64,000 nucleotides of DNA from an uncultured Candidatus Rokubacteria bacterium (GTDB lineage Bacteria; Methylomirabilota; Methylomirabilia; Rokubacteriales; CSP1-6): assembly GCA_963771355.1 (NCBI GenBank), contig CAVYTA010000006.1:2690859-2754858 (forward strand), read 5' to 3'. Shown here piece after piece: positions 60,582 through 64,000 of this stretch. The notes beneath the pieces are model-generated. The model made no database searches, was not told the origin of the DNA, and saw only the letters and a program-made list of their open reading frames with translations. Position 1 is the stretch's first letter. Each line of letters opens with the position of its first letter. The translations under genes were made by a program, and so were the position numbers.

Positions 60582-61928
60582 CTACTTGTCGATCCCGTAT
60601 TCCTTCAGCTTGCGCCAGAGCGTGGTGCGGCCGATGCCGAGGGCCTCGGCGGCGCCGGAATGGTTGCGGCCGAAGCGCTCGAGCGTCTGGAGGATCTGGA
60701 CGCGCTCGGCTTCGGCCAGCGTGGTCTGCCGCGGCAGGGTCGGCGAGGGTCCGAGCTGGAGTCCCGCCGACACGTGGGGCGGCAGGTCCTCCGGCGTGAT
60801 GGTGTCGCGGCGCGCGAGGATGGCGGCGCGCTCGATGGCGTTCTCCAGCTCGCGCACGTTGCCCGGCCACGGATAGCGGAGCAGGCGCTCGACGGCCTCG
60901 GGCGAGAGGCGCAGCGCGCGGCCGAGCTTTCGCGCCGCGCGCGCGAGGAAGTGCTCGGCCAGCGCCGGGATGTCCTCGCGGCGATCCCGCAGGGGCGGCA
61001 GCACCAGCTGGATCACGTTGAGCCGATAGAAGAGATCCTCGCGGAAGCTCCCCTGGCTGATGAGCGCGGCAAGGTCGCCGTGGGTGGCCGCGATCACCCG
61101 CACGTCGAAGGTGGCGGGCTGGGTCGCGCCGAGCCGCCGCACCTCGCCGCTCTGGAGGGCGCGGAGGAGCTTGACCTGGAGCGCGCCGGGCATCTCGGCG
61201 ATCTCGTCCAGGAAAAGGGTGCCGCCGTGGGCCTCCTCGAAGAGGCCGAGCTTGTTCACGGTGGCCCCCGTGAAAGCGCCCCGCATGTAGCCAAAGAGCT
61301 CGGACTCGAGCAGGGTCTCGGGCACCGCGCCGCAATTCACGGCCACGAAGGGGCGCGCCGCGCGCGCGCTGGCGTGGTGCACGGCCTTGGCGATGACCTC
61401 CTTGCCCGTGCCGGACTCGCCCTGGATCAGCAGGGTGGCGTCGGTGGGGGCGACGCGCTCGACGAGCTCCAGCACCGCGTGCATGGCGGGCGACTGCGCG
61501 ATGAGGCCGGCCAGGCCGTAGCGCTCGCGGAGCTGGGCGCGCAGGTTCTCGTTCTCGCGGCGCAGGGCGCGGCCGGCCAGCGCCTTGTCGATGCGGTGGT
61601 AGAGCTCGTCCGGCTCCTGGCCCTTCTCGAAGTAGTCCAGCGCCCCCAGGCGGATGGCCTCCTTGGCAGACTTCCACTCGGCATAGGCGGTGAGCAGGAT
61701 CACCTCGGTCGCCGGGGCATGGGCCTTGGCCGCTCGCAGCACGTCCAGGCCGTCGCCATCCGGCATGCGGAGATCGGTGACGACGAGGTCGAAGACCTCC
61801 TCGGCGAGGCACTTGGTCGCGGCGGTGACGCCGTCGGCCTCCAGCACGCGGTGGCCGCGCTTGCGAAGGAGCAGCGCCAGCGTCGTCCGCGCCGAGGTCT
61901 CGTCATCCACGACCAGGAGGTGCGCCAT
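60582..61928 (-). CDS. Sigma-54-dependent two-component response regulator (NtrC/AtoC family)
   Basis: Receiver VVDD...[44 protein letters not shown]. Confidence 0.95.
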
Positions 61929-61930
61929 GG

Positions 61931-63256
61931 TCACGCCGCTTCCAGCGGGAAGAGCATGGTCACGCGCGTCCCGCGGCCGGGCTTGGAGTCGATCTCGATC
62001 CGCCCGCCGTGCGCGGAGACGATGCGCTCGGCGATGGTGAGGCCGAGCCCGGTGCCGTTGGGCTTGCCCGAGTAGAACGGCTCGAAGAGCCGCGGCAGGC
62101 GCTCGGGGGCGATACCGGGTCCGGTGTCGCTGACCGCGAGGGCAACGTCGCCGTTCTGCCGGGCCACCTCGAGGGAGAGACGCCCGCGCCCGTCCATGGC
62201 TTCGACGCCGTTGAGGGCCACGTTCCAGAGCACCTGGGTGAGCTGATCGCGGTCGAAGGCGAAGCGCGGCACCGCCGGATCGATGGCCACCCGCACGTCC
62301 ACGCGGGGGGCGCGGGAGTAGTCGTCGCGGACGAGCGCGCTCACGTGCTCGACCACCTCGCCGATATCGCCGAGGGCGCGCTGGGCGGTCTGGGGGCGCG
62401 CGAAGCGCAAGAAGTCGGAGAGGATACGGTTGAGCCGGCGCGCCTCGGTGCGGATGGCCCCCAGCGTGGCGGCGCGCTCGGCGGGGGTGAGCCCGCCCTC
62501 GGCGGTGAGGAGCGCGGTGGCATTGACGATGCCCGCGAGCGGGTTGCGGATCTCGTGGGCCATGCCGGCGGCCAGCTCGCCCGCGGTGGCGAGCCGTTCG
62601 GCCGCGCGCAAGCGCGCGTGGAGCCGCTCGCTCTCGCTGCGCGCGCGCTCGAGCACCATGATGATCACGGCGAAAGTCGAGAGGAAGTACAGCGTGATGA
62701 AGACCCCATGCACCGCCAGGTAGCCGGTCGAGCCCGCTTCCGCGCTGACGAAGTGCGCCGCCATGCGGTGGACGCCCCAGAGCGTGAGCAGGCCGGCCAG
62801 GAGCCGCTCCCCGCGGAACCCCGTGCTGCGGCCGCGCTGCGGCCAGAACAGCACGCCGGCCACGATCTGCGCCAGGCCGAGACCGACCCCCACGATCTGC
62901 TGCCCCTCGTCGCCGCGGCCCAGGATGGCGATGACCGCCAGCAGCACCGCGACCCCCGTGCCCATGAGGGCGTCCCGTGCGCTCAGCCGGTAGTCCCAGC
63001 GATGCGCGAAGGCCGCGGCCAGGGTCAAGCCCACCGCGGCGATGGGGGCGAGCTCGGTGACGAAGCTCGAGTGGTCGAGCTGCAACACCAGGACGTCCAC
63101 CAGCTTGAGCCCCTTGGAGAGCGTGTAGGCGCCCCACGCCAGGAGGAGGTACTGGAAGAAGCGCACGCGGTGCGACGAGTAGAGGTACGCGAAGATCAGA
63201 AGCTGAATCGCGAAGGCCACCATCGATATGAATGTCAGCGCGAGCGAGACCGGCAT
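61931..63256 (-). CDS. Sensor histidine kinase with ~7 N-terminal TM helices
   Basis: Seven hydrophobic segments; AHEIRNPL; N-box; DTGPGI; LFEPF; GTGLGL. Confidence 0.93.
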   Translation of the reverse strand: MPVSLALTFISMVAFAIQLLIFAYLYSSHRVRFFQYLLLAWGAYTLSKGLKLVDVLVLQLDHSSFVTELAPIAAVGLTLAAAFAHRWDYRLSARDALMGTGVAVLLAVIAILGRGDEGQQIVGVGLGLAQIVAGVLFWPQRGRSTGFRGERLLAGLLTLWGVHRMAAHFVSAEAGSTGYLAVHGVFITLYFLSTFAVIIMVLERARSESERLHARLRAAERLATAGELAAGMAHEIRNPLAGIVNATALLTAEGGLTPAERAATLGAIRTEARRLNRILSDFLRFARPQTAQRALGDIGEVVEHVSALVRDDYSRAPRVDVRVAIDPAVPRFAFDRDQLTQVLWNVALNGVEAMDGRGRLSLEVARQNGDVALAVSDTGPGIAPERLPRLFEPFYSGKPNGTGLGLTIAERIVSAHGGRIEIDSKPGRGTRVTMLFPLEAA

Positions 63257-63291
63257 GCACGATCCTCCCCTTGAACAAGTCTACTCTCGGG

Positions 63292-63306
63292 GCAAGTCGC
63301 GTGCCA
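63292..63306 (-). promoter_or_regulatory. Sigma-54 (-24/-12) promoter for the kinase/regulator operon
   Basis: TGGCAC-GCGAC-TTGC matches the consensus exactly. Confidence 0.85.
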
Positions 63307-63359
63307 CGCGGAGACCATTGTGGAATCGCAACTTTTCGGAAGTTTTCGCCAGCGCGTGC

Positions 63360-63471
63360 GTTCCACTTCGAAACGGCGTTGCAGCATGGAACCGCCGTCT
63401 GATCCGACCCCTGATTCGACCCGGTGGTCACCCCACGGTTTCAGCGTGAACCGCGGGTTTCGGCGTGGAAC
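63360..63471. promoter_or_regulatory. Four palindromic upstream activator sequences (two pairs)
   Basis: GTTCCACTTCGAAAC 63360, GTTGCAGCATGGAAC 63378, GTTTCAGCGTGAACC 63438, GTTTCGGCGTGGAAC 63457. Confidence 0.7.
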
Positions 63472-63524
63472 CGGCGCCGGTCTCCTTCTCGGCGCGTTCT
63501 CAATGAATTCGCGCGGCTGGCATC

Positions 63525-63540
63525 TGGCACGCCGTCTGCT
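63525..63540 (+). promoter_or_regulatory. Sigma-54 promoter for the small peptide gene
   Basis: TGGCAC-GCCGT-CTGCT. Confidence 0.75.
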
Positions 63541-63585
63541 CTTCCACCCGGCGTGCAGTCAACACACTGACAGGAGGAAGAACAC

Positions 63586-63705
63586 ATGATGCGCACGATC
63601 GGACTCGCTCTCGCTCTCGTCACCCTGCTGATGGTCACCCCTGCGCCGGCCGCACCGCCCGACCAGGTGGACGCGCCCCGCAGCCAGGAAGTTCAGGCGG
63701 GCTGA
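63586..63705 (+). CDS. 39-aa secreted peptide precursor (not in the ORF track)
   Basis: SD CAGGAGG; MMRTIGLALALVTLLMVTPAPA-APPDQVDAPRSQEVQAG; signal peptide with A-x-A site. Confidence 0.65.
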   Translation: MMRTIGLALALVTLLMVTPAPAAPPDQVDAPRSQEVQAG

Positions 63706-63787
63706 ACCGGTGACGCAGGCGGCGCGGGCGAGCGAGGAAGCGTCTCGCTCGCCCGCGCCGACCAGCACGCAAAGGAGACATAGGACG

Positions 63788-64000
63788 ATGGGATGGCTGG
63801 ACGCAAACGAGTACTTGCTGATGGAGATGGCCGGACGGGACCGGATCGATGACATCACGCGGACGGCTCAGCTGGTCACCACGACGGGCGACTCTCACGA
63901 CGGCGCCGACGTCACCCCGCACGAGATGAGCAAGCGGGCGCCGCAGGTCGTGGGACGGGCGCGCTTCGCGGCGCGGTTGATGTGCTCCTTGCTGAGCCCG
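63788..64000 (+). CDS. Hypothetical protein, runs off the window end
   Basis: SD AAGGAG/AGGA; MGWLDANEYLLMEMA... frame open to 64000. Confidence 0.5.
   Translation, partial: MGWLDANEYLLMEMAGRDRIDDITRTAQLVTTTGDSHDGADVTPHEMSKRAPQVVGRARFAARLMCSLLSP

Follow-up and report, generated by a model that had tools for sequence, protein, structure and literature searches.

Peptide-sensing kinases of the AgrC, ComD and ComP kind are polytopic and autoregulated, and they signal through regulators of the LytTR or NarL type. Dedicated peptide signals that are read by membrane kinases have been described as mainly a Gram-positive trait (PMC5388746). Here, we describe a locus from an uncultured Candidatus Rokubacteria bacterium in which a histidine kinase, an NtrC-type response regulator and a divergent gene for a pro-peptide of 39 amino acids might together form a peptide feedback circuit run from sigma-54 promoters. 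It lies at the end of a 64,000-nucleotide stretch of contig CAVYTA010000006.1 (the window), the last position of which is also the end of the contig, and was first noticed by a model from the sequence alone (the original prediction).

Among the other described systems that come close, ZraS carries a periplasmic domain, and the Myxococcus regulator SasR is NtrC-like. The zraSR genes, for a kinase and an NtrC-type regulator, diverge from zraP, the gene of a small exported protein, and both sides have sigma-54 promoters controlled by the regulator (PMC4987338); a title cited in the same paper names ZraP as a repressor of ZraSR. SasS/SasR, which belongs to the A-signal, is a diderm two-component system that is reported to sense amino acids and peptides outside the cell (PMC4880591). 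The Phr and NprX precursors combine a signal peptide with tandem duplicated short peptides that are matured by extracellular proteases, and the receptor gene is adjacent (PMC11343458, PMC5199041). The multi-copy mating pheromone precursors of fungi have been likened to Phr (PMC5199041). The original prediction did not recognise its arrangement as described, which holds in part: the divergent sigma-54 layout is known from zraP/zraSR (PMC4987338), and no description of the present system was found in listings of open-access full texts.

Results

A conserved pro-peptide gene divergent from the kinase operon

The pro-peptide gene (63586-63705, plus strand) encodes a predicted signal peptide, read from a basic N-terminus, a hydrophobic core and an A-x-A motif, and a mature part of 17 amino acids. 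A Shine-Dalgarno sequence, AGGAGG (63572-63577, plus strand), stands ahead of the open reading frame (ORF), and further upstream is a sigma-54 -24/-12 site, TGGCACGCCGTCTGC (63525-63539, plus strand). The kinase-regulator operon has such a site on the other strand, TGGCACGCGACTTGC (63292-63306, minus strand). The original prediction had named both promoters and the ORF, and all three are present. A strict pattern fits the operon promoter at 25 of 30 loci compared and the peptide promoter at all 30; when the intergenic region was shuffled 2000 times with its dinucleotides preserved, the two sites never arose together.

Our comparison covered the window's own genome (G000), 158 other genomes of its family (159 with its own) and 251 genomes of the phylum. 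The kinase occurs in two forms, a sensor-kinase fusion of 440 amino acids, which is the window's type, and a form of about 555 amino acids with a PAS domain. A signal-peptide ORF and a divergent sigma-54 site accompany the 440-amino-acid form at all 30 best loci, the window's own included, and both adjoin six of seven further kinases of this form, so that the ORF is found beside 36 of 37 in all (three more genomes with this kinase are fragments and stand outside the count). The conserved divergent partner that the original prediction had proposed to look for next to homologous kinases is therefore there. These precursors (n=35) consist of a signal peptide and 1-11 copies of [DE][VIT][QN]APR, the core being fixed and the linkers variable. 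The window allele is a one-copy member of this QAPR-repeat family: its single core reads QVDAPR, and a second unit is shortened to EVQAG. Function probably resides in the repeated core and not in the 17-mer as a whole. Compared with the nearest relative (G180), the mature 17 codons show four silent and no replacement changes and the signal part five replacements, a pattern of purifying selection on the mature peptide. The 39-amino-acid product matches no Pfam family, CpxP/Spy-like ones included, and 17 residues would be too few for a folded chaperone.

We rejected two other readings of the ORF, as a truncated remnant of a longer secreted protein, an outcome that the original prediction had allowed for, and as the product of a collapsed assembly. 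The grounds are its conservation in 30 loci, the selection on its mature part, the same 17 mature residues in G180 and a gapless contig from an independent RNA run (X19), 97% identical over 63604-63930, which spans most of the ORF. This contig shows only that the short allele exists elsewhere. Among the contigs of 8 of the 24 listed RNA runs, near-identical ones cover parts of the kinase and the intergenic region, and cover of the latter suggests DNA or read-through.

Kinase and response regulator

The sensor histidine kinase (61931-63256, minus strand, 441 amino acids) has a seven-transmembrane (7-TM) sensor at residues 1-203 that runs straight into HisKA and HATPase_c, the only Pfam matches of the kinase; the search returned neither a PAS nor a periplasmic domain. 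In an AlphaFold model of residues 1-219 (mean predicted local distance difference test score 83), short loops connect seven helices, so that Pfam and the model agree with the topology first proposed. Two nucleotides past the kinase stop codon begins the NtrC-type response regulator (60582-61928, minus strand, 448 amino acids), with a receiver, a sigma-54 AAA+ domain that shows the GAFTGA motif in translation, and a Fis-type helix-turn-helix. The five full-length relatives, which are 76-84% identical, all come from Candidatus Rokubacteria. Neither an AgrB-, ComAB- or ComQ-like processing gene nor an outer-membrane exporter is conserved at the kinase locus.

The sensor domain occurs in 60 of the 251 phylum genomes, 56 of which are among the 158 other family genomes, and a second copy was not found in the window's own genome. 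No Pfam family matches it convincingly: profile searches of 45 sensor-family members gave no match to 7TMR-DISM_7TM, HisKA_7TM or MASE, and language-model neighbours bearing these domains score just 0.78-0.81 against it. It has no sequence relative among solved structures, and Foldseek returned nothing for the sensor model at E<=0.001. The structural matches of the model are dominated by seven-helix bundles of the G-protein-coupled receptor (GPCR) type (Z 12-14.5, root-mean-square deviation 3.5-7, about 200 aligned residues; best match Z 14.5, 3.5 and 199), a modelled likeness near the level that helical bundles can reach through common arrangement, without kinship. The sensor is part of a larger 7-TM family that has no name and whose members are joined to diverse kinases (114 matches at E<=0.001). 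In the outer half of the sensor, the polar and basic residues S11, K48, K51, D54, H163, R164 and H183 are conserved. A complex prediction of the window's sensor with residues 1-45 of a precursor from a relative (the signal peptide and about 2.5 repeats) scored 0.00, which is evidence neither way.

Palindromes and regulon

Between the two promoters lie two pairs of palindromes that are likely sites of the regulator, one of GTT-N9-AAC type at 63360-63374 and 63378-63392 and one at 63438-63451 and 63457-63471. All four had been described as GTTnC-N5-GnAAC-like, which is right for the three of 15 bp; the one at 63438-63451 is a variant of 14 bp. None of the 2000 shuffled versions of the intergenic region held more than one palindrome, against three observed by the same pattern. 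The gap between the palindromes and the peptide promoter holds an IHF-like element, TCAATGAATTC (63500-63510, plus strand), that fits 24 of 30 loci. A third palindrome pair (60542-60576) directly follows the regulator stop codon.

A weight matrix of the palindrome finds 14 sites in the window's own genome, five of them at the kinase locus. Within the family, 29 of 159 genomes have the palindrome as a pair; all 29 are kinase-positive, and in nearly all of them the pair stands at the kinase locus. At two rearranged loci with the PAS-form kinase (G219 and G216), the peptide gene retains the palindrome and a sigma-54-type promoter. Given that the sites lie at the locus and that the paired form is confined to kinase-bearing genomes, the regulator's targets are likely to be its own gene, the peptide gene and a handful of tiny ORFs. 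A single palindrome and a sigma-54 site also stand before the gene of a GAF-like protein (G000:C6:1783442-1783507), a possible distant member of the regulon. In one genus (L003, L004, L005 and L091) the peptide gene is followed by a winged-helix ORF of 60 amino acids with its own sigma-54-like site, then by an alpha/beta hydrolase and an apparent resistance-nodulation-division efflux gene. A second type of small secreted peptide, ending in NSIQVE, NSIQTP or HSVQAP, occurs near PAS-form kinases (L312:13539, L315:4922 and L320:18560; genomes G218, G219 and G139), and in G218 it is preceded by two palindrome-like sites.

The core motif outside the circuit

The window's own genome also encodes the core in an unlinked secreted protein (L150, G000:C6:896500-897967), in which about 46 TQDVNAPR-type cores lie inside a two-cysteine helical shell; the array is apparently frameshifted, which may reflect assembly errors. 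The gene has its own sigma-54 promoter and diverges from a pair of M16 peptidase genes. Long repeat proteins of this kind hold up to about 50 hydrophilic units. Of 56 loci with such a gene, 22 have an M16 peptidase gene nearby, which in most cases diverges from it, and 15 have a gene for a trypsin-like protease, for the most part directly downstream. We tried the long repeat gene as a member of the regulon and rejected it: none of 62 upstream regions has the regulator's palindrome, and a different motif, GGCAGAA[TC]GCC, is found there. This motif is conserved as a pair, GGCAGAA[TC]GCC / GGGCACAACGCC, 5' of the long repeat gene (L150-L310), and is likely bound by another sigma-54 activator, one that is family-wide; the window's own genome encodes 24 sigma-54 activators.

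A profile of linear (type-I) precursors, partly circular in that it was built from kinase-linked genes, gave non-kinase or extra matches, 20 of which the analysis covered. An extracytoplasmic function (ECF) sigma factor of one kind is repeatedly found close to linear QAPR precursors and close to the kinase locus (L364, L365, L371, L112 and L116; identity Pfam-checked for the first three). QAPR repeats are also fused to a peptidoglycan-binding domain (L167, L185, L192 and L198; PF01471 in L192), and at L167 a D,D-carboxypeptidase gene lies near the fusion.

Variants of the core tend to match between the kinase-linked and the unlinked gene. The N variant is present in 11-57 copies in all seven genomes of the window's genus and in at most three in the other 152, and the kinase-linked peptides of this genus likewise carry N or D. 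The I, T and S variants often agree between the two genes, with exceptions in G098, G094, G086 and G226. Over 28 genomes, agreement at core positions 2-4 is 0.819, compared with 0.773 in within-genus permutations (p=0.0001), a test that does not wholly correct for relatedness within genera and in which the N shift counts as one event. Silent third positions of the same cores show no excess agreement (p=0.19 and 0.46). The set leaves out G224, which has no unit fitting the pattern, takes the units of G109 and G134 from frameshifted loci, and includes one spurious unit in G134. Because amino acids match without a match at silent sites, gene conversion is disfavoured as the source of the matched cores, and the pattern points to selection by a shared recognition partner. 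The N-variant genus has three fixed sensor changes, T12M, T71P and V72I, in the outer half of TM1 and TM3.

Other features of the window

Past the regulator, a sigma-54-like site whose last letters are TTGA instead of TTGC (60476-60490, minus strand) recurs 3' of the regulator in relatives. It is followed by a candidate small ORF with a conserved RRIDxVIDYF motif (60226-60459, minus strand; start uncertain, no Pfam match). A TTGA or GTGA site recurs past the regulator in many relatives, even where the RRIDxVIDYF ORF was not found, and it is possible that region 60226-60576 yields a small RNA. On the other side of the locus, 3' of the peptide gene, a GC-rich hairpin without a U-run (63721-63759, plus strand; one arm fits 20 of 30 loci) is a candidate terminator or RNA-stabilising stem. 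Beyond it, a small ORF beginning MGWLDANEY (63788-64000, plus strand), open at the contig end and with no Pfam match, follows the peptide gene in several relatives as well. Elsewhere in the window, 58820-60200 and 55740-56200 are related stretches with shared ends that look like a frameshifted insertion-sequence transposase, and 56255-56869 (minus strand) is a predicted secreted ORF with a long coiled stretch rich in Glu, Arg and Ala between Cys-bearing ends.

Discussion

The reading that we favour, at slightly less than even odds (a probability of about 0.45), is a peptide feedback loop in which the exported precursor is cut after arginine and the core acts on the adjacent sensor. The regulator would bind the palindromes and, through sigma-54, activate both the operon that encodes it and the pro-peptide gene opposite. 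The pro-peptide would be exported by Sec and cut after each arginine into short [DE][VIT][QN]APR peptides, and the freed cores would feed back on the 7-TM sensor. Export, processing, binding to the kinase and the sign of the feedback are steps that we infer; the tight linkage of the peptide gene to the 440-amino-acid kinase, the shared regulator sites and the pro-peptide anatomy support the loop in part. The original prediction, an autoinducing loop wired through sigma-54, keeps its conserved and selected ORF, a promoter that shares regulator-specific sites, and the anatomy of a pro-peptide; it is weakened by a core that is family-wide and mostly encoded outside the circuit. Since the core is found throughout the family, in many copies within an unlinked protein that is likely under a different sigma-54 activator, the circuit, rather than owning a private signal, might be an optional device that hears and amplifies a peptide common to the family.

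Several observations weigh against such a loop. Of 158 family genomes, 131 have the shell of the long repeat protein, which is all but confined to the family, and only 55-56 have the kinase. Linear precursors also occur away from the kinase, some in kinase-negative genomes that have none of the regulator's sites. Because the repeat protein outnumbers the kinase and linear precursors occur without it, conservation of the core needs no such kinase. One 440-amino-acid kinase (G081) has no adjacent peptide gene, PAS-form kinases have a small secreted peptide nearby at 4 of 19 loci (of QAPR type at two), and one genome that is 95% complete (G240) has the PAS-form kinase but lacks any QAPR match. 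The kinase locus shows no conserved transporter or protease gene. A W-G-x-H-K/R motif in TM6 is shared even by distant members of the 7-TM family, so the basic residues of the sensor may serve another ligand. The partner shared by the matched cores could be a protease as well as a receptor. Finally, the covariation of peptide and sensor that the original prediction had proposed to look for did not exceed controls in a clade comparison: outer-face substitutions are enriched equally in core-shift and control clades (p 0.004 and 0.006).

Much of this would also suit a pro-peptide that is an output only. The kinase would then sense something else, such as a small acid, a lipid or the state of the membrane, and the product of its target gene would have a different partner: periplasmic proteases, for instance, as a competitive substrate or inhibitor, or some other family-wide receptor, as its ligand. 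Such a role would go with a motif spread far more widely than the kinase, the scarcity of peptides beside PAS-form kinases and the missing covariation. Other targets resemble small stress-type genes (winged helix, ECF sigma factor, small ORFs), and a shared protease, of which the M16 and trypsin-like genes near the long repeat gene offer two kinds, would explain the matched variants. That adjacency may be inherited gene order, however, and a mere output fits poorly with the linkage of 36 in 37 to a kinase form that has no other input domain and with a circuit that targets almost solely itself and tiny ORFs. We regard this explanation as the main alternative, somewhat less probable than the loop. 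It is rather doubtful that the feedback loop extends to a family-wide pheromone, in which neighbouring periplasmic proteases would free [DE][VIT][QN]APR cores in lineage dialects and the GPCR-shaped kinase would hear and amplify them via sigma-54.

A cell-autonomous accessory of the ZraP or CpxP kind would need the same contact between peptide and kinase as the favoured loop, with feedback that is negative and private: the product would stay in the periplasm and dampen its own kinase, or report on protease or envelope state, and would play no part between cells. The layout of the locus is that of zraP/zraSR, a Sec-exported peptide in a diderm arrives first in the periplasm, and the locus has no conserved exporter for the outer membrane. 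Yet the 39-amino-acid product has no CpxP/Spy-like fold or Pfam match, the kinase has no periplasmic domain of the ZraS kind, and tandem cores with lineage variants are more like pheromone precursors than accessory proteins, which makes this reading unlikely. It would be more surprising still if the repeats were a bulk protectant, hydrophilic and disordered, with the short kinase-linked copies as by-products of repeat shuffling. The long protein with its many hydrophilic units and the fusion to a peptidoglycan-binding domain are what one might expect of a stress protectant; purifying selection on one-copy alleles, cores that match between genes without a silent-site match, and a fixed core among variable linkers are not.

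If the wider pheromone reading holds, a diderm would have a quorum-sensing loop with a dedicated peptide, and a widespread family of 7-TM sensors that has no name would gain its first ligand. A feedback loop in a soil lineage without cultured members would itself widen what has been a mainly Gram-positive rule, and a synthetic peptide of 6-10 residues could serve as a handle to probe Rokubacteria or to help culture them. The locus brings together a candidate ligand, regulator, binding sites and promoters within one 3.2-kb cassette. Even without binding to the kinase, the family-wide, lineage-tuned QAPR core would be an undescribed recognition motif. As judged from sequence, known parts (the divergent sigma-54 layout and multi-copy propeptides) appear here in an undescribed combination, with a strong ligand candidate.

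How does the locus compare with the systems introduced above? Fungal mating pheromones share the repeated peptide copies per secreted precursor and, as far as the sensor is modelled, the seven-helix shape of the receptor, which is an analogy only, as the sensor has no sequence relation to solved structures and the output here is a histidine kinase. The Myxococcus A-signal is a mixture from general proteolysis, for which the cited part of PMC4880591 describes no dedicated, co-regulated precursor with a fixed core. With ZraP-ZraSR, the locus has in common the divergent sigma-54 promoters for a two-component operon and an exported-protein gene. Its kinase scores 198.5 bits against a ZraS cut-off of 479, though, and its regulator 407.9 against a ZraR cut-off of 760; the sensor is a 7-TM bundle without a periplasmic domain, and the product ranges from a 17-residue to a multi-repeat peptide, whereas ZraP is a zinc-binding chaperone.

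The precursor itself is reminiscent of Phr and NprX, in that a signal peptide is followed by short, often duplicated C-terminal peptides. RRNPP receptors, however, are cytoplasmic proteins of monoderms that require import of the peptide, whereas the candidate receptor here is a membrane kinase of a diderm; no cytoplasmic tetratricopeptide-repeat receptor adjoins the gene, its conserved neighbour being the membrane kinase with its NtrC-type regulator, the output is sigma-54, and the core is common to a whole family. From AgrC, ComD and ComP the locus differs in its HisKA and HATPase_c core, in a sigma-54 activator in place of LytTR or NarL regulators, and in a precursor with a Sec-type leader and no conserved AgrB-, ComAB- or ComQ-like gene at the locus. 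The kinase is not of the AgrC/ComD type, and the likeness to these kinases that the original prediction proposed holds for the architecture: a polytopic, autoregulated sensor without a soluble outer domain, encoded next to a peptide gene.

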